The notes below the pieces were generated by a model. That model saw only the letters and a list, made by a program, of their open reading frames with translations. It had not been told where the DNA came from and ran no database searches. From a virus (Duplodnaviria; Heunggongvirae; Uroviricota; Caudoviricetes), in IMG/VR virus record IMGVR_UViG_2713897075_000003, positions 1 to 24,702 of that record: a stretch of 24,702 nt of DNA; one strand, given 5' to 3'. The translations under genes and the position numbers were made by a program. This document shows positions 1,413 to 24,702 of this stretch, piece by piece. Numbering within the stretch: the stretch's first letter is position 1; the number at the start of each line of letters is the position of its first letter.

Positions 1413-2394
1413 GGTCCACCTCATGCTTTTCAGCCACCAGCGGCAATAAAGCCCTGGCCATCTTATGAACCAATAGTGCATCAATAATGCCAAGCGTATG
1501 CCCCGGCTTAATGTTTAATGCCGCCTCAAGGTGACACCTTTCCAGGTCACTTTTCTCGGCTTGTTTATGATGATCTGGTGTAATAACGTCGCCCAAAACA
1601 CGGCTAATTCTTTCTCGTAATTGCTGGGTGCCAGCACACTTGATCGCTGTATCGTGGAGACGGTTAACCAGTTCGCGATAAACATGCGGCTTAATGCGGA
1701 TACGTTCACCGGTGACGCCCTTTCCTGGCGCTGGCACCGAACTATCCGGAATATCCGGATAGTTGCCAGCCAGTCTACGCAAAACAGCCTTAACAGCCTC
1801 AATACGGTCATCATCGCAATTTTCCAGCGTATCTATGCGGTCGAGCATGATGATTGCGTTATCAATATCAGGATTGCCGGTCCACTCATTACCGCGATTG
1901 GATTCGGCAGCCTGGTTGCCACGTACTGGTTGATTCTCGGCTTTACCCAGTCTGTCGTCGCTGCATGAATGCCCTTCCAGCCAGGCCAGTGCTTGTCGCA
2001 TGAAATACGCAATATGCTTGCCGTGGTAATCGTCTTCATCGATGTGAAAAGCGATACTGCGGATGTATTCAATTGCGTTTTCAATGGCCTCTAACGCTAT
2101 CGGCGCTGGCGGAGTGGTATATAGTTTTCGACATTTGTATATCCAACCGGCATGGTCAGGCGTGTCTGTAAAGCGCAAATCGTCTTCGTAGCACTCACGA
2201 CTTCGTTCTTTCCATTCCGTCCACGGAACACCGCTATTCCAGGTGGGGCGAGTGCAGGACTGATACAGAACAGGCTCTGCTTCCAGCGATGCCAGCGCAA
2301 TCTGTGCCAGTTCCATTTGTTCACCACGGGTAAGCCCGTTTTCAAGCGGATTTTTAATGAACAATTCAATACGTTCTTTGGTAATAGTGGTCAT
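1396..2394 (-). CDS. Hypothetical phage protein (332 aa), MTTITKER paralog family
   Basis: ORF track; ATG 2394 with RBS AAGGAG. N-terminus MTTITKER...IALASLEAEPV is shared with the 122-aa ORF at 2670..3038. C-terminal segment YRELVNRLHDTAIKCAGTQQLRERI resembles the C-terminus of the DUF4406-like protein at 9813..10436. Confidence 0.6.
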   Translation of the reverse strand: MTTITKERIELFIKNPLENGLTRGEQMELAQIALASLEAEPVLYQSCTRPTWNSGVPWTEWKERSRECYEDDLRFTDTPDHAGWIYKCRKLYTTPPAPIALEAIENAIEYIRSIAFHIDEDDYHGKHIAYFMRQALAWLEGHSCSDDRLGKAENQPVRGNQAAESNRGNEWTGNPDIDNAIIMLDRIDTLENCDDDRIEAVKAVLRRLAGNYPDIPDSSVPAPGKGVTGERIRIKPHVYRELVNRLHDTAIKCAGTQQLRERISRVLGDVITPDHHKQAEKSDLERCHLEAALNIKPGHTLGIIDALLVHKMARALLPLVAEKHEVDHANES

Positions 2395-2404
2395 GTGTTA
2401 CTCC

Positions 2405-2668
2405 TTAACCCGCAGTGCTTTCAACTGATGAGGGGAACAAAATCTTTTCATCAAACCCTGCATTCATATCATGAACAGCAACACACCAATCCATCGACGA
2501 ACGATTATCAAGAGCCTCCATGATTTCATCCATGCGGCGCAGGTCATACAGGTAAATGCTTTTATCGCCAATGGTGTAAAAACCAATTTTTTTCGGTGAT
2601 GGGCAGCGATCAAGAACGTCCTGTAATTCGTTCAACCATGCCCGTTCTTTTTTTGTTAAAGTTGCCAT
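2405..2668 (-). CDS. Hypothetical small protein (87 aa)
   Basis: Internal ATG of track ORF 2405..2761 preceded by AAAGGAGAGTGAT; start overlaps the upstream stop. The same 16-bp initiation region recurs at 3241-3256. Confidence 0.45.
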   Translation of the reverse strand: MATLTKKERAWLNELQDVLDRCPSPKKIGFYTIGDKSIYLYDLRRMDEIMEALDNRSSMDWCVAVHDMNAGFDEKILFPSSVESTAG

Positions 2669-2669
2669 A

Positions 2670-3038
2670 TCACTCTCCTTTCCCATGAAGCATAGCGGCG
2701 CGGCAGGCATTCCAGCCTGTAGCGTATGCAGCCGCTTTGCTGCTGCCTTCAACTGGCGCATCCTGCCAATACATTTCTTCCGGCACTACCTGCACCTGAG
2801 GGGTGGCGTAGAGTGGAATTCCTCCCCCTCCACCAGAAAATTCATTGCGAGCGTTATACTCACGACCATCTGCGTCATCACGCATCCACGCCACCGGTTC
2901 TGCTTCCAGCGATGCCAGCGCGATACGAAACACATTGGCAAGCAGGCTGTCTGAAGATTGGTTATCGTGCGCCGGGTCGCTCAGGAAGCCTGTGATGAAT
3001 GATTTAATCTCCGCACGTTCTTTGGTAATAGTGGTCAT
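2670..3038 (-). CDS. Hypothetical protein (122 aa), MTTITKER paralog with poly-Gly linker
   Basis: ORF track; N-terminus MTTITKERAEI...IALASLEAEPV; 33-bp DNA repeat with the start region of 1396..2394; RBS GAGGA. Confidence 0.5.
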   Translation of the reverse strand: MTTITKERAEIKSFITGFLSDPAHDNQSSDSLLANVFRIALASLEAEPVAWMRDDADGREYNARNEFSGGGGGIPLYATPQVQVVPEEMYWQDAPVEGSSKAAAYATGWNACRAAMLHGKGE

Positions 3039-3244
3039 GTGTTAATCCTCAAAACTTTATGCCCGGGCGCAAAAGTACGTGTTTTGTCTTTGCTTATTCG
3101 CCAGCCATCCTTGCGCGCCTCTTTTGCACAGCCAGCCCATGACGTACCTATATACTCACCGAAGTCTGGCACTGGATATACACCTTCCGTGCACTGACGG
3201 CAGTCACAATAGAGATGCATGGTGTAACTTGCAGCGATAGCCAT
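3035..3244 (-). CDS. Hypothetical Cys-rich small protein (69 aa; CDCRQC motif)
   Basis: Internal ATG at 3244 of track ORF 3035..3316, preceded by AAAGGAGAGTGAT (duplicate of the initiation region at 2668). Confidence 0.4.
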   Translation of the reverse strand: MAIAASYTMHLYCDCRQCTEGVYPVPDFGEYIGTSWAGCAKEARKDGWRISKDKTRTFAPGHKVLRINT

Positions 3245-3245
3245 A

Positions 3246-3434
3246 TCACTCTCCTTTAGTACGCAAGTGGTTTTTCCAGCGGTTTTGCGCCGCGCTGGGC
3301 TTTTTGCAAAAACCACAATCCATCATCCCGTAATATTTCATCAACCCCATCCGTCGGTTGCTGAGTCTCACCCACTGCCAGACGCCAGGAGCGTTTCTAC
3401 GAACTAACAGAATCTTTGCTTTACGGTTTTTCAT
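3246..3434 (-). CDS. Hypothetical basic small protein (62 aa, MKNRKAK...)
   Basis: ORF track; K/R-rich; start overlaps the stop of the upstream paralog (ATGA). Confidence 0.4.
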   Translation of the reverse strand: MKNRKAKILLVRRNAPGVWQWVRLSNRRMGLMKYYGMMDCGFCKKPSAAQNRWKNHLRTKGE

Positions 3435-3607
3435 CTTACTGCGTACCCTTTCTTCCGCCTGTTCTGTGACGCAGTAGGCTTACGCTTTGCGGCAAAAGCC
3501 ACCTGACCAAATGGATGGAGTACCGCTATCTTATGGTTGCTAATAACCAGCTCCACCACACGCACAGGTCGCTGTAAAAAAAGTCGTTTTGCCTTACGGT
3601 TTTTCAT
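3431..3607 (-). CDS. Hypothetical basic small protein (58 aa, MKNRKAKR...), tandem paralog of 3246..3434
   Basis: Hand translation (below the 60-aa track cutoff): MKNRKAKRLFLQRPVRVVELVISNHKIAVLHPFGQVAFAAKRKPTASQNRRKKGYAVR; RBS AGGAGA 8 nt upstream; about 17-bp start-region repeat shared with the next gene. Confidence 0.3.
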   Translation of the reverse strand: MKNRKAKRLFLQRPVRVVELVISNHKIAVLHPFGQVAFAAKRKPTASQNRRKKGYAVR

Positions 3608-3779
3608 CGCTTTGCTCTCCTGCGTCTCTTTGCTGCTCGTCGTGCCGCTGCAATACCGGTATGGCGGCGCTTTGGTGCTGGGGTGATGTTGTCAGCCATC
3701 AGGACCTGTGGCTTTGCAATTAGCGCAGAAGCCCAAAAACGAGTCGGGTACGGTAACAAGCCAATACATGCCACACGCA

Positions 3780-4226
3780 CTACTCACCTCCGTTGATGCG
3801 AATGCCTGTTGCAATGCTGTTTATGATGCTGTCAGTGCATGGGGTAGAAAGCTGGGCATCTCCAGCAATTTTCATGACATCAACATCTGCATATCGAATA
3901 CCGAGGTGTATCAGACCGGCTATACCTGACTTAAGCCGAGCATTTTCCATAAACAGATCCTTTGCCCGCTGTTTTTCTGCCTCAAGCTCAACGCGCAACT
4001 TCCCTACCGTTAGCGCAATATCCTCGTTCTCCTGGTCGCGGGATTTGATGTATTGCTGGTTTCTTTCCAGTTCATCCAGCAGTGCCAGCGCGATATCTGG
4101 CGAAAAGTGCTTCATAAAATCGTTAAGCGCATTAATTCGCTGATCGAAGGGCATTACAGGTGCTTCACCAGCAATTTTTGTTTTTTCAGCGATTTCACGA
4201 AGCTTTTGATAATCAATCTTGCTCAC
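3780..4226 (-). CDS. Ea22-like family protein (148 aa)
   Basis: GTG start overlapping the upstream stop (GTGA), RBS AAGGAGG; N-terminus MSKIDYQKLREIAEK and coiled-coil [16 protein letters not shown] are typical of the Ea22/Ead-like paralog family of lambdoid prophages. Confidence 0.55.
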   Translation of the reverse strand: MSKIDYQKLREIAEKTKIAGEAPVMPFDQRINALNDFMKHFSPDIALALLDELERNQQYIKSRDQENEDIALTVGKLRVELEAEKQRAKDLFMENARLKSGIAGLIHLGIRYADVDVMKIAGDAQLSTPCTDSIINSIATGIRINGGE

Positions 4227-4810
4227 TGGTTGCCTCCTTTGCGAAGCTGTTCAGCAATACTTACGCATATCTCTGCGCCTCTAATCAGCCCCGGAACGTT
4301 CTTGTTTGGCCCAACTTCACCATCAACAAAATCAATCATCGCGTTACGAGCCATATCCACCCCCTGCGCACGTACTTCAGCCAGGAGAGCGTCGGTAGCT
4401 GGGGTTTCCGTGAAGTTGTCCTCCCAACCGTAGTACTCCTGACGACAGAAGTTATTAAATTCCTTCTCCGACTGTTTAAGCGCCGCATTCTCCACTGCCA
4501 GCGCCGCGCACTTGGCCTCAAGAGCGGCAACCACTTCCTGATGGTCTTTGTACTTAACGTATGAGCCGGAGATGTCATCACCTTCGGTGTTTAGCCATGC
4601 GTCATTGCAATTCACTGCGTAGGTTCTGATGCTGATGCTCTCCCGCCCCTGACAGACGCCAGGCCAGTCAATAAAGTATCCGCAATGCCTACCCTCAGAC
4701 GTGCGCGCAGGATAAATGCCGTTATGACCCGGCAAAATATATGCTACCCATTCATCTTGCGTTGCCTGTTCCGCCGCCTCGCGCAGTTCTTGATAGTTAA
4801 TTTTGCTCAC
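4223..4810 (-). CDS. Ea22-like family protein (195 aa)
   Basis: GTG start; N-terminus MSKINYQELREAAEQ; C-terminal ...AEQLRKGGNQ shared with the paralog at 7778..8488. Confidence 0.55.
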   Translation of the reverse strand: MSKINYQELREAAEQATQDEWVAYILPGHNGIYPARTSEGRHCGYFIDWPGVCQGRESISIRTYAVNCNDAWLNTEGDDISGSYVKYKDHQEVVAALEAKCAALAVENAALKQSEKEFNNFCRQEYYGWEDNFTETPATDALLAEVRAQGVDMARNAMIDFVDGEVGPNKNVPGLIRGAEICVSIAEQLRKGGNQ

Positions 4811-5486
4811 TGGTTGCCCCCTGAATACGCTTAAACTCGATTACCCACACCCAAGGATTAGCGTTCCAACTATCTTCGCCATAAATTGATTTCCATAGGC
4901 TACGGAAACTTGGGTAATGCTTATCGCCAATGAGGGTCGATTCTGTTGGTGCGCCCTCAGCCCTTGCATCGCATTCGCTGATATCGTTCAACCGCTCAAC
5001 GCGCACGTTGGTAATTTCCAGAAGAATGCGCGATGCCCAGCGCGGCATGTGAATTGATGGACACCACCCGCCATCAAATTTTTCATTCACAGTGTGAGGT
5101 TTCCAGTCGGCATCATCGGGTATCGACCACAAGCCGTAATCACCCGGCTTTTGCTCACAACTGGCCCGATAAATCCTTGCTGCGTTCTTCTCATCGCCAC
5201 GACAAAGGTTGTCGTTCCAGTCCACACTGCAACCATCCTCATTGCCTAATATCGCCCACGCCTCACGGACCCATATGCGATCACCAACGTTACCGAACGG
5301 GCATAAACCATGTTCAGGTGCATCCATAACGTGGGTATAGACACCATTGCGTTTCTTTGTCGGTTTACGGATAACCAGGCAGTTATCGGCCCTGACATTT
5401 TTTACAGGTCGGCGAGTCTGCGTCTTCCTTCCTTCGAGGATGGCCCTGGCCATCTCATCGTTAAAAATCATCCCGCGTTCTTTCAT
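4797..5486 (-). CDS. Hypothetical phage protein (229 aa), possibly ASCH/PUA-like N-terminus
   Basis: Track ORF 4797..5498; first ATG at 5486 is preceded by GAGGTGG. N-terminus MKERGMIFNDEMARAILEGRKTQTRR. The family assignment is a guess. Confidence 0.5.
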   Translation of the reverse strand: MKERGMIFNDEMARAILEGRKTQTRRPVKNVRADNCLVIRKPTKKRNGVYTHVMDAPEHGLCPFGNVGDRIWVREAWAILGNEDGCSVDWNDNLCRGDEKNAARIYRASCEQKPGDYGLWSIPDDADWKPHTVNEKFDGGWCPSIHMPRWASRILLEITNVRVERLNDISECDARAEGAPTESTLIGDKHYPSFRSLWKSIYGEDSWNANPWVWVIEFKRIQGATSEQN

Positions 5487-5502
5487 TTTTTGATCCACCT
5501 CA

Positions 5503-7781: not shown

Positions 7782-8488
7782 TGATTGCCCCCTTCCCTAA
7801 GCTGTTCTGCACAATGCAGCAGCGCACCTGTCGCATCTTTAAGCGTCACTAGCTCGTCATCATCCAGTCCTACTCCCCTCGCGTCCCTGACAAACGCCGC
7901 GCAAAGGTCGTTAAACGCCCCCGCCCGCACTTCAGCCAGGAAAGCGCCAGTAGCAGGGGTGTCAATGCAAACACTGTCACGAAGGATGAAGAACGCATTA
8001 AGCATTCCTCTTTCTGGTACATCGTCCTGGCATTCCTCATATGCAACCAATGCATCCATCATTTTCTGACCGAATTGCTGAGGGTGTGCAGATTTCAGTG
8101 CTATATTCTCCGCCGCCAGCGTCGCGCGATTGCTCTCCAGTTCTGCAATGCGCTGTTTTGCAGCATCAAGTTCAATCGATAATTTTTCCAACTGCTCTTT
8201 ATGCTTCTTGTATTCCTGATATGCGTGCCAGGACTGACCTTTGCGCACACTATCAGTAATATCAGTAATCTGTTCTGGTGTTAGCGTGGTCAGTGGCTGT
8301 GCTGGGAAAATCAGCACTTTCCCGGAATCCCAATCAAAACCAGCGTGAATTGACTGAACCTCAACTGAAGGTGTTGAACCAATGCTGCCAGGCGAATGAA
8401 CAACGATCGTTACATCCATATCGCGACGATGGCTGTGGTTGTTGGACAAAATACGATTCACCAACTCAGAAAATTTGGAAAATTTCAT
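7778..8488 (-). CDS. Ea22-like family protein (236 aa)
   Basis: Internal ATG at 8488 of track ORF 7778..8539, overlapping the upstream stop (ATGA). Coiled coil ([30 protein letters not shown]) and C-terminal ...[10 protein letters not shown] shared with 4223..4810. Confidence 0.5.
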
Positions 8489-8811
8489 GCTGATTCCCTT
8501 TGCTCTTCCTGGATAATGTTGTTGCAATCTTTCACGCACTCGTTGCAGATGAAAACGTTGTCCCCGGCAATTAACTTTTTAACGGTGTGCTGGGATTTGT
8601 TGCAGAAGCTGCAATAAAGCGTTGGACTGGCTGATACGGATGGTGCGCCAGATGTCAGCCGCGCGATGTCGTTCTTGCGACGCAATATCACACGGCTGCA
8701 CTCGACCAGCATCTCCGGGGATATCTTCTCCTCCGTAGCGAGCGTTTCTAATCGTTCGAGTATGTGGAAGGCTTTTTCCTGGGTAATTGCAGAATGAGAT
8801 GTGGTCATCAT
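8485..8811 (-). CDS. Stand-alone ClpX-type C4 zinc-finger (ZBD-like) protein (108 aa)
   Basis: C-terminal half [40 protein letters not shown] aligns almost residue-for-residue with the ClpX N-terminal zinc-binding domain ([40 protein letters not shown], recalled from memory). No AAA+ module follows. Confidence 0.6.
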
Positions 8812-13315: not shown

Positions 13316-13627
13316 ATGAAAAAAATAGATTTCACTTATTCTGCCGCCACACTTGAGCGGCGCTTCACCCTCATTAGAGAGTTGGAACTGTCAAAAGTCT
13401 GGTATCAAATCCTACTGGATGAAGAGTTTTCACTGATGGTTATAGCAGAAAAATTGGCTATGCCGAATGACCGGCACAAGGTCATAGCCAGCCTCGATCT
13501 GGTGACAAACAGATACTGGGAAACAGAGGAACTACATGAGGCGGGAGTAATTCGTGACCTGATGGAGAATTCCGTTCCCCGCCGCTATCGTGCAGGAAAC
13601 GGCATCTCCGTGGTTAAAGGTGTTTAA
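13316..13627 (+). CDS. Hypothetical protein (103 aa)
   Basis: ORF track; weak RBS; preceded by hairpin CCCCGGCG/CGCCGGGG (13266-13282); its stop overlaps the stop of the convergent gene. Confidence 0.35.
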   Translation: MKKIDFTYSAATLERRFTLIRELELSKVWYQILLDEEFSLMVIAEKLAMPNDRHKVIASLDLVTNRYWETEELHEAGVIRDLMENSVPRRYRAGNGISVVKGV

Positions 13628-14016
13628 AGCTCACCTGCGCGCTGTTTTTCAAGCACAGATTTAACATTTGGCGCTTTCCCTTTAAAAGAATGGAAAGTGC
13701 CACATTTTTCTGTTTTAACCTCGCGCAGAGCTTCGCCATCGGCGTTCTGCCATTGATGGGATAATGTCATATCACCGCGAGAAGGAACATCCAGCGAGTA
13801 CAGCGTGTAAGTTCCCCCCATCTCCGCATACTCCTGGAACACATAGCTCATTACGTCAGATTCAGTTTTTCGGTGTGCGTTATCAACCTTATTCCCATTC
13901 AGAAATATGGCATCTGGATAGATTTTTATATCAAACCGACCGCACTTAACTTGTAAATTTCCGGCGCTCGCGATCAAAGGGAAAGACGCCAGTAAAGCAA
14001 TAGCCAATCTTTTCAA
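13624..14016 (-). CDS. Secreted/periplasmic protein of unknown function (130 aa, signal peptide)
   Basis: TTG start at 14016 preceded by GGAGG at 6 nt; N-terminus MKRLAIALLASFPLIASA is a classic Sec signal peptide. Confidence 0.5.
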   Translation of the reverse strand: MKRLAIALLASFPLIASAGNLQVKCGRFDIKIYPDAIFLNGNKVDNAHRKTESDVMSYVFQEYAEMGGTYTLYSLDVPSRGDMTLSHQWQNADGEALREVKTEKCGTFHSFKGKAPNVKSVLEKQRAGEL

Positions 14017-14036
14017 TTCTGCCTCCGCTGCGTAAC

Positions 14037-14660
14037 TTATTGCCCGTATTTTTTACACCATTGCTCTGCCATTTGTTTGGCTAAAGGCCCGGCTACTGCA
14101 CTGTATTCTGCTGTTTTACTTTGCACACATGAAGCAGATGGTTTTTTATTTCGCTGCTCGGTTAGTTTGCGCTCATAAGCCATCATGCTATCGAACCCGG
14201 CAATATCACTTTGGCGAAGCATTCCCTTTTTAACCAAAAATTGCTGCCCCTCGGGCACCAACGCAAGCATAAAAAGTGGTTGTAATAACTCACCTAATCC
14301 TTGCTGGCGATACACTTCGAATTGCTGCCATCCCTGACTTAATCTGGAAAGAGTATCTTTGGTTGAATAACCTGTTTTTGTTATAGCTTTGTCCGTCAGA
14401 TATGCTGTATATGCAAAAACGCAAAAGTCAGTTTTACCAATAAACTGAGTTCCAACAGGCCGTAATGGAATGCCCTCTCTCTTGCAAAAGTCCATAATTG
14501 CCGCTTGTGAATGATCCCCACCAGCGTTATTCATAACCTGCTGCCCTGCCCTGAATTGTGCAGGTAACGCAGTTGCATTGGCTGTATTAACAGATACGCA
14601 TCCCAACATAGCCGCGAGCGCGGTCCCTAAAACCCTTAACTTCACTACACCGTCCTTCAT
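14037..14660 (-). CDS. Putative lipoprotein of unknown function (about 202-207 aa)
   Basis: ORF track 14037..14660. The ATG at 14660 lacks an RBS, whereas the in-frame GTG at 14645 has AAGGA 8 nt upstream and gives M-KLRVLGTALAAMLGC (signal peptide plus lipobox-like LGC), so the real start is probably 14645. Confidence 0.5.
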   Translation of the reverse strand: MKDGVVKLRVLGTALAAMLGCVSVNTANATALPAQFRAGQQVMNNAGGDHSQAAIMDFCKREGIPLRPVGTQFIGKTDFCVFAYTAYLTDKAITKTGYSTKDTLSRLSQGWQQFEVYRQQGLGELLQPLFMLALVPEGQQFLVKKGMLRQSDIAGFDSMMAYERKLTEQRNKKPSASCVQSKTAEYSAVAGPLAKQMAEQWCKKYGQ

Positions 14661-17826: not shown

Positions 17827-18129
17827 TTACTCCAGTTCTATTGTATCCGCTTCAATGGCATCGTATTCCTTATGTGTTCCAATAAACTTAACGAACATCC
17901 ATCCTCGCTGATAAGCAATTGCGACAATTAACCTGTAATCATTTCCCTTAATATTGAACACCACGCGCCTGTTTTTAAGGATGCTGGCTGTCCGGTACTG
18001 TTCTTTGATCTCAGCCGGATTTTTCCAGTCAGCCTTTGTTGCTTCATCAACCCATGCCTTTAATGGCTGTTCTGCATCGGGATTCTTCGCCCAGAAATCC
18101 CTTAGTGTTTTTACCGAAATTATTTTCAT
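17827..18129 (-). CDS. higB: HigB-like toxin, RelE/ParE superfamily (100 aa)
   Basis: Internal ATG of track ORF 17827..18186 preceded by GAAGGA. MKIISVKTLRDFWAKNPDAEQPLKAW...YRTASILKNRRVVFNIKGNDYRLIVAIAYQRGWMFVKFIGTHKEYD matches the HigB pattern (...VFN.GGN..R......IR.V.TH.EYD); toxin precedes antitoxin as in higBA. Confidence 0.7.
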   Translation of the reverse strand: MKIISVKTLRDFWAKNPDAEQPLKAWVDEATKADWKNPAEIKEQYRTASILKNRRVVFNIKGNDYRLIVAIAYQRGWMFVKFIGTHKEYDAIEADTIELE

Positions 18130-18159
18130 CACAGATTCCTTCTCGCTGAAAGTATAGTA

Positions 18160-18205
18160 GTCCCAATATGGGACAATGTAAAGCACTTTAGTCCCATGCT
18201 GGGAT
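18160..18205. promoter_or_regulatory. Two palindromic operator-like sites in the higBA promoter region (GTCCCAATATGGGAC and TCCCATGCTGGGA)
   Basis: Two TAGTCCCA...TGGGA palindromes 31 bp apart, directly upstream of higB and divergent from the 18275 operon. Confidence 0.45.
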
Positions 18206-18274
18206 ATGAATTGAAATCACAATCTCCAGACAATGCACCCTCGATACCTGATAAATCGACCTTTGAGGATGCTT

Positions 18275-20814: not shown

Positions 20815-21464
20815 AGCGTAGAGCGCAAATTGTTGGAACTGTGCACCCGGCAGGGCTTATGCGTGCTCAGGTCCGTGTTTTACCAGACTGGAATGGCGTT
20901 CCTGATGACGATCTACCCTGGGCAGAATACCTGTTACCCATAGGTAACGCGTTTGTACCTACAGTAAAAGGCGACCTGGTATGGGTAGAGTTTCCTTATC
21001 TGGATGTTAATGGTCGAATTGATACCAGACGCCCAATGATAGTTGGCGCAGCTCAGGATGCGCCTGGCGGAGTACCAAACGTCGCGCCGGAGGCGTCAGG
21101 CAATGGTAGCGGCTGGACGCCACCAGAAGTAGACGGAGCGCCTCCCCGCCCGCAATTTTCGGCGACAAAAGATTTCGTGATTCACCGCAACAATGTGCTC
21201 GAAGTGCGAACGGCTGGCGGTGGATATGAAATAGCGAATACGGCAGCAGGCTCAAGGATTGGAATGAATGAATCAGGGCAGATATACATCATTGGTCCGG
21301 CTGATGTAGTAGTGAATGCGGGAGGGAGTGTTAACGTCAAATCAGCCGATAACATCAGCGTTAATGGCAAAAACATTACTGTGACAGCCGACGAAAATAT
21401 TGATTTCAAGGCTGGAGGCACCTTCCAGGCTATCGCAAGCAACTTTGATTTCAAGAAGGGATAG
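20811..21464 (+). CDS. Baseplate assembly protein V / gp5-like spike (OB-fold plus beta-helix repeats), 217 aa
   Basis: N-terminal AQVRVLPDWNGVPDDDLPWAEYLLPIG...KGDLVWVEFPYLDVNGRIDTRRPMIVGA follows the gpV/VgrG N-terminal OB-fold pattern; C-terminus has beta-helix-like repeats VVVNAGGSVNVKSADNISVNGKNITVTADENIDFKAGG. No sheath, tube, wedge or fiber genes are in the window. Confidence 0.5.
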   Translation: MKRRAQIVGTVHPAGLMRAQVRVLPDWNGVPDDDLPWAEYLLPIGNAFVPTVKGDLVWVEFPYLDVNGRIDTRRPMIVGAAQDAPGGVPNVAPEASGNGSGWTPPEVDGAPPRPQFSATKDFVIHRNNVLEVRTAGGGYEIANTAAGSRIGMNESGQIYIIGPADVVVNAGGSVNVKSADNISVNGKNITVTADENIDFKAGGTFQAIASNFDFKKG

Positions 21465-21473
21465 AAAACACAT

Positions 21474-21517
21474 CCAATTGTGTTAGATAATTGAATAGAA
21501 TTTTCTAACACAATTGG
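21474..21517. promoter_or_regulatory. Perfect 14-bp inverted repeat CCAATTGTGTTAGA-N16-TCTAACACAATTGG (operator site 3 / RNA hairpin) upstream of the rdgC-like operon
   Basis: Arms 21474-21487 and 21504-21517, spacer 16 nt; contains the same TGTTAGA/TCTAACA core as sites at 6540 and 10631; ends 6 bp before the RBS of the rdgC-like gene. Confidence 0.55.
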
Positions 21518-21523
21518 TGAAAC

Positions 21524-22429
21524 ATGAGATCAGTCGCTTTCAAAAACATCTTCATCTATCGTCTTTCACGTGAAGTTAACTGGAGTGCCGCAGAAGTATC
21601 CGATGCTCTTAGCAAATTCGTGTTTACTCCTTGCGGTTCTCAGGACACAGCTAAAGTCGGTTGGACACCTGTTCTTGGTGACAACCTCACCCATGAATAC
21701 CAGGGTTTTCTGCTAATACAGCATAAGCGAGAAGAAAAAATTCTCCCCTCGCAGGTGCTCAAGGAAGAGTTGCAGAAAAAAGTCCTGAAACTCGAAGAAG
21801 AGCAAGCCCGCAAGCTGAAGAAAACGGAAAGAGACAGTCTTAAAGATGAAGTCCTGCATTCACTTTTGCCTCGCGCGTTCACGAGAAAATCACTCGCCAA
21901 AATCCTGATCGACCGCAGCAACCATCTGGTATTCGTTGAGGCAAGCAGCGCCAAAAAGGCAGAGGACCAGCTGGCTTTATTGCGAAAGTCGCTCGGCAGC
22001 CTGCCTGTCATTCCATTCACACCACGCGAACCGCTGGAAATTACAATGACCGAGTGGTTTAAAAGCGGCTTCCCTGCCGGATTTACAGCAGGTGAAGACG
22101 CCACATTAAAGGGTCTGCTCGATAATGGTGGTGCCGTTCGCTGCAACAAAGTTGATCTACAGTCCGACGAGATTATGTCTCACATTGAGGCGGGGAAAGT
22201 AGCTACGACCGTTGCAATTAACTGGATGGACCGTGCGTCGTTCAGAGTCAACGATGATATGAGTATCAAAGCCCTGACATTCTGTGATGATCTCTATGAC
22301 CAGAACGACGATATCGACCGGGAGGATGTAGCACAACGATTTGATGCTGATTTCGTGCTCTTTACGGGCGAATTATCTGCACTGTTTAACGCGCTGGTGG
22401 AGGCCATTGGCGGTGAAGCAGAACGATAA
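21524..22429 (+). CDS. rdgC: RdgC-like recombination-associated protein (301 aa)
   Basis: [12 protein letters not shown]...[16 protein letters not shown]...[16 protein letters not shown]...[29 protein letters not shown]...[23 protein letters not shown]...[22 protein letters not shown] is collinear with chromosomal E. coli RdgC as I recall it. Confidence 0.85.
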
Positions 22430-23093
22430 TAACCGACCGCTTGTTGTGAGTCTTTGTGATTTTACGGGGGCAATGGTTGCCCCCTGGCTGGAATACGGTG
22501 TCGATGCCGCTATCGTCGATCCACAGCACTTATCGACCAGTGACGAGCGGATGCAATCAGGTGCCGTTCTGACGCGTATTAGTGCGATCATCGATAGCGA
22601 TGAAGTATACGCTTTTCTCCGTAAGAATTTGCAGCGCATCGTGTTTCTGGCCGGGTTCCCACCGTGTACTGACCTGGCTGTTTCCGGCGCGCGCTGGTTT
22701 TCGGACAAGGCTAATAAAGATCCGGTTTTCCAGTTCAAAGCAATGCAGGTTGTCTGGCAGTGTTATGACATTGCAAAGATGATCGGTTGTCCGTACATGA
22801 TTGAAAATCCGGTCAGCAAAATATCGACATTCTGGCGTAAGCCAGATCACAGCTTTCACCCTTACTTCTTCACTGCATATTGTCAGGAAGATAACTACAC
22901 CAAAAAAACATGCCTCTGGAGCGGCCAGGGCTTTGTCATGCCTGATGCCCTAATGGACGAATCATTAGGCAAGCCAGATAACAGAATCCATGCCGCGCCA
23001 CCAGGGCCTGACAGGGCTAATTTCCGAAGTGCTACTCCACATGGATTCGCAAAGGCAGTTTTCGAAGCGAATAAGGGGGTGCTCTATGAGTAA
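22413..23093 (+). CDS. Truncated C5-cytosine methyltransferase-like catalytic core (about 226 aa; motifs I, IV, VI-like; no target-recognition domain)
   Basis: Probable GTG start 22413 (GGAGG 9 nt upstream), overlapping the rdgC stop. SLCDFTGAM (motif I-like), [15 protein letters not shown] (motif IV-like PC with Cys), MIENPVSKI (ENV-like) occur in the order and spacing expected for the large domain of C5-MTases. Too short to contain a TRD or motifs IX/X. Confidence 0.5.
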
Positions 23094-23991
23094 ATCTATA
23101 GCAAGCATAGCCATAGAAAAACAGGATACGATGGCTGAAATTAGCTATATGCGCACCATTCGGACTCCGGATGAATATGAGCGTCCGATATTCAAATGGG
23201 TAGGTGGTAAATTCTCAGAATTGCCTACAGTGCTTGAGCATCTACCACACGGTAAGCGGTTAATAGAACCATTCGTTGGTGGCGGTTCCGTATTTACGAA
23301 TGCAGGATTTCGCCACAACCTGCTTAATGATATTAACGGTGACCTGATTAACTTCTATCAGACATTGCAGCGAGAAGGACATTCGCTCGTCACGCTGTCA
23401 TATAGTTTTTTCAAAAATTACAACAACGCTGACGCTTACCTCGAAGTGCGTGAGGCATTTAACAGAGGAAAATATGACCAGCTACATCATGCTGCCGCAT
23501 TTTTGTACCTTAATCGTCACTGTTTTAATGGCGTAACGCGGTACAACCAAAATGGCGAGTTCAACGTGGGGTATGGCAAATACAAAGCGCCCTACTTCCC
23601 ACATGCAGAGATGGAGGCATTTTTGGCTGATGACGTACTCAAAAACACTTCCTTTGTATCAGGAGACTTTGCTAGCGTCATCGAGGCGGCTGGTGAAGAC
23701 GATGTGATTTTTTGTGATCCGCCGTATGAACCGCTTCCGGATACAGAGGGATTTACCAGCTATTCAGGAAATAGCTTCCGTTTCGATGAACAAAAACGGC
23801 TTGTATCACTGTTGGTGGATGCCCACCAGCGCGGCGCTAAGGTAGTGATAACAAATAGTGGTGCTCCAAACATCCGTGAGCTATATGAAGGAAACGGGTT
23901 TAAAGTACATCATATGGCAGCCAGACGGTCGGTTTCCTGCAAGGCGTCAACACGTGTAGTTGCTAACGATATAATTGCAATAATGAAGTAA
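23086..23991 (+). CDS. dam: Dam-family DNA N6-adenine methyltransferase (301 aa)
   Basis: ATG 23086 with RBS AAGGGGG, overlapping the upstream stop by 8 nt. PIFKWVGGK...IEPFVGGGSVF...FLYLNRHCFNGVTRYNQNGEFNV...DPPYEP match Dam / T4 Dam motifs including DPPY. Confidence 0.85.
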   Translation: MSKSIASIAIEKQDTMAEISYMRTIRTPDEYERPIFKWVGGKFSELPTVLEHLPHGKRLIEPFVGGGSVFTNAGFRHNLLNDINGDLINFYQTLQREGHSLVTLSYSFFKNYNNADAYLEVREAFNRGKYDQLHHAAAFLYLNRHCFNGVTRYNQNGEFNVGYGKYKAPYFPHAEMEAFLADDVLKNTSFVSGDFASVIEAAGEDDVIFCDPPYEPLPDTEGFTSYSGNSFRFDEQKRLVSLLVDAHQRGAKVVITNSGAPNIRELYEGNGFKVHHMAARRSVSCKASTRVVANDIIAIMK

Positions 23992-23994
23992 AAA

Positions 23995-24020
23995 ACGCCG
24001 CAGTAGCGGCGTTTACTTTT
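23995..24020. terminator. Bidirectional intrinsic terminator between dam (+) and glnS (-)
   Basis: ACGCCGC-agta-GCGGCGT 7-bp stem flanked by AAAAA upstream and TTTACTTTTT downstream. Confidence 0.6.
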
Positions 24021-24039
24021 TCATGTGGCGAAATACCTA

Positions 24040-24702
24040 TTAACCTAACTTCGCCCAGGTATCACGCAGCCCAACGGTGCGGTTAAATACCGGTTTTTCC
24101 GCCGTAGAATGGCGGCTGTCGAGGCAGAAATAACCTTCACGCTCAAACTGGAATGCTTTACCCGCTACCGCTTCTTTCAGCGACGGTTCAGCAAAGCCTT
24201 GTTTGATCACCAGCGATTCCGGGTTAATCACCGACAGGAAATCATCCGCAGCACCTGGGTTCGGCACGTTGAACAGACGATCGTACAGGCGGATTTCAAC
24301 CGGCAGCGCATGTGCCGCGCTCACCCAGTGAATAACGCCTTTCACTTTACGACCATCTGCCGGATCTTTGCTTAAGGTGTCGGCGTCATAAGTACAGAAG
24401 ATGGTGGTGATATTACCTTCGGCATCTTTCTCCACGCGTTCAGCCTTAATGACGTAAGCATTACGCAGACGCACTTCTTTACCCAGCACCAGACGTTTGT
24501 ACTGCTTGTTAGCTTCTTCTCGGAAATCGGCGCGGTCGATCCAAATCTCACCGCTAAACGGCACCTGACGGCTACCCATTTCCGGTTTGTTTGGATGGTT
24601 CGGCATGGTGACCATTTCGCCTTCGCCCTGGTAGTTTTCGATAACCAGTTTCACCGGATCGATAACCGCCATTGCGCGCGGGGCATTTTCGTTGAGATCT
24701 TC
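24040..24702 (-). CDS. glnS: Glutaminyl-tRNA synthetase, C-terminal part (5' end beyond window)
   Basis: Translation ...[101 protein letters not shown] is near-identical to the anticodon-binding domain of enterobacterial GlnS; the ORF runs to the window edge. Confidence 0.9.

Follow-up and report, generated by a model that had tools for sequence, protein, structure and literature searches.

Can a phage-encoded protein of 226 amino acids that carries motifs of the large domain of DNA cytosine-C5 methyltransferases (below, the C5 protein) methylate DNA when it has no obvious target-recognition domain (TRD), and does it depend on the Dam-type protein encoded beside it? Its ORF lies on the + strand of a 24,702-nucleotide stretch of viral DNA (here called the window), where it runs from a GTG at 22413 to a TAA at 23091-23093 and has a GGAGG Shine-Dalgarno sequence (22399-22403, + strand, read from the sequence) 9 nt 5' of the start codon. 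The window represents a phage-plasmid of the P1 type that is D6-like, and the C5 gene is the equivalent of phage D6 orf64, with identical gene boundaries and a product that is 99.1% identical in amino acid sequence. GenBank annotates D6 orf64 as a "putative DNA-cytosine methylase", and RefSeq labels the C5 protein 'hypothetical protein'. The ORF at 22413-23093 is a genuine gene, and the purifying selection on it is strong (dN/dS = 0.06 in comparison with an 82% identical homologue).

The C5 gene is the central member of a three-gene cassette that is probably translationally coupled, all on the + strand. The first gene, rdgC/hrdC (21524-22429; Pfam PF04381, E = 5e-103, and NCBIfam RdgC), is the counterpart of D6 orf65 ('similar to P1 hrdC'), and its stop overlaps the C5 gene start by 17 nt. 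The third gene (23086-23991) encodes a 301 aa Dam-family N6-adenine DNA methyltransferase (PF02086, E = 5e-57; TIGR00571, E = 1e-74), and its ATG lies inside the C5 gene, giving an overlap of 8 nt (ATGAGTAA) between two ORFs in different reading frames. A hairpin with a 9-bp stem that includes 6 G-C pairs (23993-24014) is a candidate terminator, acting in both directions, between dam and the convergent glnS gene.

The original prediction had seen in this protein the core of a C5 methyltransferase and had named the Pfam profile PF00145 and structure prediction as ways to check it. The profile did not detect it: Pfam (E up to 1) and NCBIfam scans of the C5 protein gave zero matches. It does match PHROG 757, 'DNA methyltransferase', with an E value of 1.1e-77, residues 2-224 being aligned to positions 8-222 of the 247 in the profile. 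Its homologues form more than 7,900 clusters at 90% identity and at least 1,543 at 50% identity, and nearly all are 200-280 aa long. The C5 protein is not new but is a compact member of this large phage family. To measure conservation we aligned 94 diverse homologues, whose mean column identity is 22%: C85, E131, P133, K164, T166 and W169 are invariant, and conservation reaches at least 90% at D36, F82, P83 and N132. PF00145 is the sole Pfam family that recurs among these members, in 6 of the 94 and each time below threshold (best E = 0.0039), and PDB sequence searches with two family HMM profiles gave noise or nothing.

When the family was compared by hhalign with a profile of canonical C5 enzymes that we built by hand (12 phage PF00145 genes plus phage P1 Dmt, 13 sequences in total), 184 columns were aligned with an E value of 1.8e-4, at a probability of only 49%, and motifs I, IV and VI were in register; with a low-diversity Dmt alignment as the target, the same comparison did not reach significance. 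Structure prediction agreed with the original assignment. The AlphaFold model (pLDDT 85, pTM 0.85) has a predicted large-domain C5-methyltransferase fold, and its best PDB matches are DNMT3A/3B, the prophage C5-methyltransferase 3g7u, CmoX (8yf3) and DNMT1.

The three motifs from which the assignment had been made are where they had been placed, in the C5-type order and spacing, and their conservation across the 94 homologues argues that they are not there by chance. The motif I-like sequence S13-LCDFTGA-M21 (22449-22475, + strand, as are all of the following elements) makes up strand beta-1 and the cofactor loop of the model and is paired by hhalign with canonical motif I; its family consensus is S-L-(F/C/Y)-D-x-(T/S)-G-x-M, which is without the FxGxG glycines. 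Asp36 (22518-22520) is at the motif II position, at the end of strand beta-2 (residues 31-35 in the model), and is an Asp in 93 of the 94 members. In class I methyltransferases the ribose of SAM is bound by the acidic residue of motif II, a role that Asp36 may well have here. Motif IV (residues 81-92; 22653-22688) contains the putative catalytic Cys85 (22665-22667), which is present in 94/94 members, and its F-P-P residues are each found in 81-87 of them. Residues 85-93 have low pLDDT in the model, as is expected of a mobile catalytic loop. Motif VI, I130-E-N-P-V134 (22800-22814), has Glu131, the counterpart of the Glu in the canonical ENV motif, and N132 is present in 89 of 94; Cys85 and Glu131 are 45 residues apart, which fits canonical motifs IV and VI. 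One family member carries an intein at the PC motif. Intein insertion sites tend to mark functionally critical positions, so this motif is likely to be one.

It had also been claimed that the protein stops before the places where the TRD and motifs IX and X would lie. This does not hold as stated, since three further elements follow the ENP sequence. A motif VIII-like strand, Y162-TKKTCL-W169 (22896-22919; strand 166-171 in the model), has K164/K165 in place of the canonical R-x-R. It is followed, at the TRD position, by a variable segment of 35 aa, S170-F204 (22920-23024), which is the family's principal hot-spot for insertions: from W169 to R205 the members vary between 27 and 77 residues (median 35), and members P0006, P0008 and P0121 have insertions of 28-30 aa within it. 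The last element, residues 205-220 (23025-23072), is a helical, conserved one with the pattern R205-S-x-T208-P209-x-G211-F212-x-x-A215-V, in which R205 is found in 89, S206 in 87, T208 in 90, P209 in 93, G211 in 92 and F212 in 89 of the 94 members, and helix 210-220 has a pLDDT of about 97. We therefore rejected the reading of a protein cut off before motif X. What is missing, and missing across the whole family, is a TRD/small domain of its own; there is no clear motif IX (R-x-x-T-P-x-E...Q-G-F-P), and no Q-G-F-P-D follows motif VIII.

Is this last element motif IX or motif X? In canonical enzymes motif X has a hydrophobic residue, then G-N-S/A-V-x-P, with a helix after it. hhalign pairs it with motif IX (RRLTPRE) and not with motif X, and neither hhalign with the C-terminal segment alone nor hhalign against single short methyltransferases distinguished the two. 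On the other hand, it resembles the G-R-S-W-S-V-P of DNMT3A, whose chain ends with LLGRSWSVPVIRHLF..., and family variants of it include G-S and R-N. Our tentative reading is that it corresponds to motif X.

The nearest characterised relative is the Dcm of phage K42 (Drexlerviridae; 711 bp, 236 aa), which triggers retron Ec86/Eco1; when expressed alone it raises 5mC on Ec86 msDNA, as measured by LC-MS, and the effect is lost in a C82A/E128A/K175A/K176A mutant (bioRxiv 10.1101/2023.08.16.553469). That study presumed a CCWGG target without mapping the target sequence, and its assay host, MG1655, carries dam and dcm (bioRxiv 10.1101/2023.08.16.553469), so that K42 Dcm could in principle depend on a host factor. 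The orthologue from phage tonn has exactly the length of K42 Dcm (236 aa) and has C82, E128, K175 and K176; it is 37% identical to the C5 protein over 94% of the length (E = 3e-32), and these four residues of the K42-type protein align with C85, E131, K164 and K165. The K42/KarlJaspers-type Dcm proteins and the C5 protein belong to the same PHROG 757 family and the same size class, have no TRD and have DNMT3A-like predicted structures. They differ in that the K42 type is longer ahead of motif VIII and within segment 170-204, and in that its gene is a solitary one in a lytic siphovirus, whereas the C5 gene belongs to a temperate phage-plasmid, where rdgC and dam are coupled to it.

From sequence, model and analogy, the C5 protein is likely to be an active, self-sufficient, single-domain, SAM-using DNA cytosine-C5 methyltransferase of the phage 'Dcm-like' minimal family (PHROG 757). 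By the standard C5 mechanism and the residues that are conserved, Cys85 of the F-P-P-C loop would attack a flipped-out cytosine at C6, Glu131 in the E-N-P motif would protonate N3, Lys164/Lys165 would take the part of the motif VIII arginines, and the methyl group would pass from SAM to C5, after which beta-elimination would free the enzyme. Because there is no separate TRD, the DNA contacts would be expected to come from loop 85-93 and segment 170-204, possibly with DNMT3-like oligomerisation. The C5 protein and Dam may together mark phage-plasmid and host DNA after replication, which would guard it against restriction; methylation by Dam may additionally serve P1-type Dam-dependent functions, and the C5 protein would need no Dam for its own action.

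How does this reading compare with the idea, raised in the original prediction, that the C5 protein may need a partner for targeting, with the adjacent Dam-like protein as a candidate? In its full form, the C5 core could not target DNA by itself and a complex with Dam would supply the DNA binding, as a split form of P1 Dmt. What had been said of P1 is correct, as Dmt has PF00145 (E = 1.6e-35) in its N-terminal part and PF02086 (Dam) in its C-terminal part, and the gene order hrdC, C5, Dam is the same in P1, where C5 and Dam are one polypeptide of 754 aa rather than the two genes of the D6-like locus. In both cases the C5 module immediately follows hrdC/rdgC on its 3' side and precedes the Dam module, and the Dam of the D6-like locus is an orthologue of Dmt residues 478-753 (69% identity). 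The correspondence ends at the C5 module: the one in Dmt, about 470 aa long, is of the canonical PF00145 type and includes motifs IX and X as well as a large variable region, BLASTP of the C5 protein against P1 Dmt gave no significant alignment, and the C5 module is, given this lack of detectable similarity to the Dmt N-terminal half, best seen as a non-orthologous replacement. A database search seeded with that half returned near-identical Dmt proteins only, and when viral contigs were scanned with Dmt variants as seeds, P1-like loci alone came up. The "split Dmt" idea is thus right for gene order and for Dam and not for the C5 part. A partnership is favoured by the 8-nt overlap and the coupling it makes probable, by the retention of the C5-dam pair in D6-like and other P1-like phage-plasmids, and by a natural, rare fusion of a minimal C5 protein to Dam (563 aa; three independent contigs, P0121 cluster). 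A viral-contig scan for C5-Dam fusions found unfused D6-like pairs only. Co-regulation explains the fusion or adjacency of two methyltransferases equally well. Against a partnership, 75 of 80 viral loci lack a Dam gene within 4 kb, and the five that have Dam or RdgC within that distance are all D6-like; C5 genes are solitary in lambdoid nin regions, Pseudomonas prophages and T1-like phages; and the K42 homologue is active without any phage partner. We consider a need for Dam to be very unlikely and rejected Dam as an obligate partner.

Could the family act on something other than duplex DNA, or add something other than a methyl group? If the substrate were single-stranded or hairpin DNA, or RNA methylated to m5C by analogy with DNMT2, this would explain why a TRD is dispensable; the sole demonstrated substrate of the family, retron msDNA, is single-stranded with a stem-loop, and the neighbouring RdgC is a recombination-associated protein. 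However, the msDNA site sits in the double-stranded stem, the best fold matches are enzymes of duplex DNA, the C5 gene is linked to Dam in the D6-like lineage, and RNA substrates are without positive support, so such a substrate is very unlikely. The original prediction had also raised a non-canonical modification, which could be the use of carboxy-SAM (Cx-SAM) from the host CmoA to make 5-carboxymethylcytosine, as phage CmoX does, or the transfer of some other group. The hallmarks of CmoX are an S-P-P-C motif and an Arg that replaces the Asn of motif X (PMC12783734). The family has F-P-P-C and a near-invariant Arg205 at or beside the position of the CmoX Arg, which contacts the transferred group, and Cx-SAM is made by E. 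coli; CmoX (Synechococcus phage S-B43, PDB 8YF3) also shares with the C5 protein its P-P-C motif, its phage origin and a good fold match. Yet CmoX is a protein of 372 aa with a TRD region that accepts only Cx-SAM, and its gene adjoins cmoA and a ligase gene. The C5 gene has no such neighbours, and tblastn with SpCmoA and SpCmoY found none near 86 family loci (85 plus the window). The K42 homologue yielded 5mC by LC-MS; hhalign against SpCmoX is weak (E = 0.002, probability 14%); the G-S and R-N variants suggest that R205 matches the Gly and not the Asn of the canonical G-N; and an Arg in motif X is not diagnostic of CmoX, since DNMT3A uses SAM and yet has G-R-S. A modification of this or another non-canonical kind by the C5 protein is very unlikely. 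Least probable of all is the suggestion that the C5 protein has no catalytic activity, whether as a pseudoenzyme or as a remnant that binds DNA. Its shortness, atypical motif I and lack of a Pfam match might be taken that way, but we rejected this reading because the catalytic Cys and Glu are invariant (94/94); the low dN/dS, the intein at the PC motif of one member and the inactivity of the catalytic mutant of the K42 homologue are all against it.

If the C5 protein is a self-sufficient methyltransferase, how does it differ from those already known? The canonical PF00145 enzymes such as M.HhaI and E. coli Dcm share with it the order and spacing of the motif I, PC and ENV-type motifs, a Rossmann-type fold and, presumably, covalent catalysis. 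It differs from them in being below the Pfam threshold, in having no small domain, TRD or clear motif IX, and in its motif I (D-x-T-G, canonical F-x-G-x-G), motif VI (E-N-P), motif VIII (K-K-T, canonical R-x-R) and putative motif X (R-S, canonical G-N). The catalytic domains of DNMT3A/3B are alike in having a very small TRD and in a chain that ends about 21 residues past the Arg-Ser pair that precedes the last helix. Their sequence identity to the C5 protein is only 10-15%, however, and they are about 280 aa long, include motif IX and a TRD loop that can be recognised, and self-associate or oligomerise with DNMT3L.

With about 220 residues, these proteins are among the shortest C5 DNA methyltransferases. 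Their compactness could make them useful as scaffolds in tools for epigenome editing or DNA labelling, and they raise the structural question of how a cytosine is selected without a TRD. We suggest, tentatively and as less probable than the assignment itself, that this uncurated family might hold the smallest natural DNA C5-methyltransferases, that they might read DNA unlike the TRD-bearing enzymes, and that P1/D6-type phage-plasmids might have an exchangeable C5 slot before Dam that is sometimes fused to it. Possible ways of reading DNA would be DNMT3-like oligomerisation, very short or relaxed motifs, or the use of segment 170-204 alone. It is less likely again that the conserved Arg205 enables some members to use carboxy-SAM. 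P1-like phage-plasmids retain the C5 plus Dam methylation cassette with the C5 module swapped. Standard annotation overlooks the family, for which there is no Pfam or NCBIfam model; enterobacterial phages and phage-plasmids very commonly carry it, and at least one member is sensed by retron Ec86, a bacterial defence system. The C5 gene itself is found at 99% identity or more on plasmids of about 90 kb, and 98 of 5,426 complete E. coli genomes carry it.

The ORF that runs from GTG 22413 to TAA 23093 (+ strand) encodes a 226-aa protein that is probably an active, stand-alone minimal C5 DNA methyltransferase, as judged from comparison with its relatives, and it belongs to a known but poorly curated phage family. 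The gene is not new as an annotation, since phage D6 already calls its counterpart a cytosine methylase: D6 orf64 ("putative DNA-cytosine methylase") has equal boundaries and its protein is 99.1% identical. The RefSeq product name is "hypothetical protein". Pfam and NCBIfam scans of the protein gave no match, and the PHROG 757 "DNA methyltransferase" profile matches it end to end (E 1e-77). Among the scored candidates this family has over 7,900 clusters at 90% identity, and at 50% identity it has 1,543 (E up to 1e-3). Nearly all of its members are 200-280 aa long, and 1,579 phage genomes have a tblastn match, among them Drexlerviridae, Jersey-like, rV5-like, Klebsiella, Vibrio, Campylobacter and Flavobacterium phages.

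The link between this family and the canonical C5-methyltransferases is remote in sequence but consistent. No Pfam family except PF00145 turns up repeatedly in the members (6 of 94, best E 0.0039), and hhalign pairing of the family profile with 13 diverse phage PF00145 enzymes (E 1.8e-4, probability 49%) brings motif I and the PC and ENV motifs into register. With an AlphaFold model of the protein (pLDDT 85, pTM 0.85), Foldseek ranks DNMT3A/3B first, and the BFVD fold matches are family members annotated as cytosine methylases. The motifs named in the original prediction are indeed present, namely SLCDFTGAM (residues 13-21), the PC motif (81-92) and IENPV (130-134). In an alignment of 94 diverse homologues with a mean column identity of only 22%, C85, E131, P133, K164, T166 and W169 are invariant, and conservation is 90% or higher at D36, F82, P83, N132, R205, S206, T208, P209, G211, F212 and A215. 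Together with a dN/dS of 0.06 against an 82%-identical homologue, this indicates that the gene is under strong purifying selection and that its putative catalytic residues are its best-conserved positions, so the suggestion that it might be a pseudoenzyme is not supported.

An experimental anchor for the family comes from a retron Ec86 study in which escape mutants of the KarlJaspers-like Drexlerviridae phage K42 were isolated, all of which had a disrupted, or probably disrupted, 711-bp "dcm" gene (bioRxiv 10.1101/2023.08.16.553469). Expressed alone in E. coli, K42 Dcm was toxic only when the retron was present, and LC-MS showed that it raised 5mC on msDNA. A quadruple mutant (C82A/E128A/K175A/K176A), its residues picked by superposing an AlphaFold model on DNMT3A, was inactive. 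The study, done in a dam+ dcm+ host, took CCWGG to be the target without mapping it (bioRxiv 10.1101/2023.08.16.553469). Later papers cite the K42 Dcm result as established. Related phages commonly carry the 711-bp gene (in BASEL phage FritzSarasin it is annotated "Dcm-like C5 cytosine methyltransferase"), and the orthologue in phage tonn has exactly the K42 Dcm length and residue numbering. The tonn protein shares 37% identity with the window protein across 94% of its length, and in the family alignment its C82, E128, K175 and K176 align with C85, E131, K164 and K165; the window protein is thus homologous to an enzyme characterised as 5mC-forming.

Does the protein really stop before the target-recognition domain (TRD) and motifs IX/X? 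It does lack a TRD domain, as had been proposed, but it is not truncated, for a conserved C-terminal helix is present. Beyond the ENP motif lies a strand that resembles motif VIII (YTKKTCLW, residues 162-169). It is followed by a segment of 35 residues and then by an almost invariant element, R-S-x-T-P-x-G-F-A-x-A-V, which forms the last helix, itself predicted with confidence. The W169-R205 segment varies from 27 to 77 residues across the family (median 35) and is its main insertion site, behaviour that would be expected of a miniature specificity determinant. We read the C-terminal element as a putative motif X on three grounds: it lies at the very end of the chain, which is the place of motif X in all the canonical enzymes aligned; a hydrophobic residue 204 precedes R-S at 205/206, where the family also has G-S and R-N variants that approach the canonical G-N; and DNMT3A ends with LLGRSWSVPVIRHLF... 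The hhalign partner of the element is motif IX (RRLTPRE) instead of motif X.

Two other readings of the protein were weighed. That it performs non-canonical chemistry as a CmoX, a natural C5-carboxymethyltransferase, we consider very improbable. The defining features of CmoX are an S-P-P-C motif and an Arg350 that replaces the motif X Asn (PMC12783734), and the family has a conserved Arg205 and a similar motif, which is however F-P-P-C. Going by the G-S and R-N variants, R205 would match the Gly rather than the Asn of G-N, and DNMT3A uses SAM yet has G-R-S at this position. Moreover, the alignment of SpCmoX to the family profile is only weak (E 0.002), none of the family loci searched has a cmoA or ligase gene nearby, and the product of the K42 enzyme is 5mC.

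The other reading, an obligate partnership with the adjacent Dam, draws on a C5-Dam pairing that is conserved in D6-like contigs and another P1-like phage-plasmid. It is not supported family-wide: the gene is solitary, with neither Dam nor RdgC within 4 kb, in 75 of 80 viral loci, and K42 Dcm is active when expressed alone, which argues against a required partner. In a Cronobacter lambdoid prophage the C5 gene lies between ninB and ninE/F, and in a Pseudomonas prophage and phage tonn no methyltransferase adjoins it. The pairing is more simply read as co-expression of two protective methyltransferases. There is a natural 563-aa single-polypeptide C5-Dam fusion (P0121, P0391 and P0392, on three Logan contigs), in which a linker of ~50 aa joins an N-terminal part with 57% identity to the window C5 protein and a C-terminal part with 49% identity to the window Dam; none was found in IMG/VR.

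P1 Dmt is, as originally stated, a fusion of C5-like (PF00145, N-terminal) and Dam-like (PF02086, C-terminal) domains, and the P1 gene order is hrdC then dmt. Dmt residues 478-753 and the window Dam are 69% identical, whereas BLASTP finds no similarity between the N-terminal half of Dmt and the window C5 protein. The hrdC-C5-Dam cassette is thus conserved with its C5 module replaced by a non-orthologous, much smaller one, and the description of a "related but distinct arrangement" was right in outline.

The window is that of a P1-type phage-plasmid of the D6 kind. Nucleotides 21400-24100 share 96% identity with Escherichia phage D6, and over its full length ~78% of the window aligns with D6 at 95%, as a mosaic: the matching part of D6 lacks any counterpart of 2109-3039, 3298-3976, 4238-5500, 7787-8502, 13540-14602 and 17831-18213, the last of which falls at the place of the D6 HigA/RelE addiction module. 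A GGAGG can be read 9 nt upstream of the C5 GTG on the + strand. The stop of rdgC/hrdC (21524-22429, +) overlaps the C5 gene by 17 nt, the C5 end overlaps the ATG of dam (23086-23991, +) by 8 nt, and a hairpin (23993-24014) separates dam from the 3' part of a convergent, phage-plasmid-borne glutaminyl-tRNA synthetase gene (glnS, D6 orf62; 24040-24702, -); by these overlaps and the hairpin, rdgC, the C5 gene and dam look like one translationally coupled unit. The hairpin, common to dam and glnS, could terminate in both directions. A mechanical ORF list gives the dam frame as 22990-23991 (+), from an upstream ATG inside the C5 gene (333 aa); D6 and RefSeq start it at ATG 23086 (301 aa), in agreement with where the Dam profile begins. 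The 90%-identity cluster of the window protein mixes 226-aa C5 and 301-aa Dam proteins (representative 301 aa), a mixture suggesting that the two are linked in the database by reading frames fused or frameshifted over the 8-nt overlap. The same 900 bp is also carried by ~90-kb non-mobilisable plasmids; among complete E. coli genomes 98 of 5,426 have it, and it is present in Salmonella and Shigella too.

Related architectures were also seen. Two very large phage proteins in BFVD, A0A6J5NPY6 (1126 aa) and A0A6J5SE15 (1397 aa, with an N-terminal helicase), contain the minimal methyltransferase fold at 26-27% identity. Microbacterium phage vB_MoxS-R1 gp29 (246 aa; viral locus L179, 1289-2029) is a short PF00145-like methyltransferase that retains GFPCQ, ENV and LGNSVVPP (motif X) without a TRD or motif IX, and seems to be another, independent example of a minimal C5 enzyme. 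Finally, inteins with Hint and LAGLIDADG domains occupy the identical insertion point, the catalytic Pro-Cys motif, in two methyltransferase lineages unrelated in sequence: a 548-aa family member (P0266, FGFPPC/intein/CTNLSVSG) and a canonical 740-aa P1 Dmt variant (P0366, GGTPC/intein/CQAFS).
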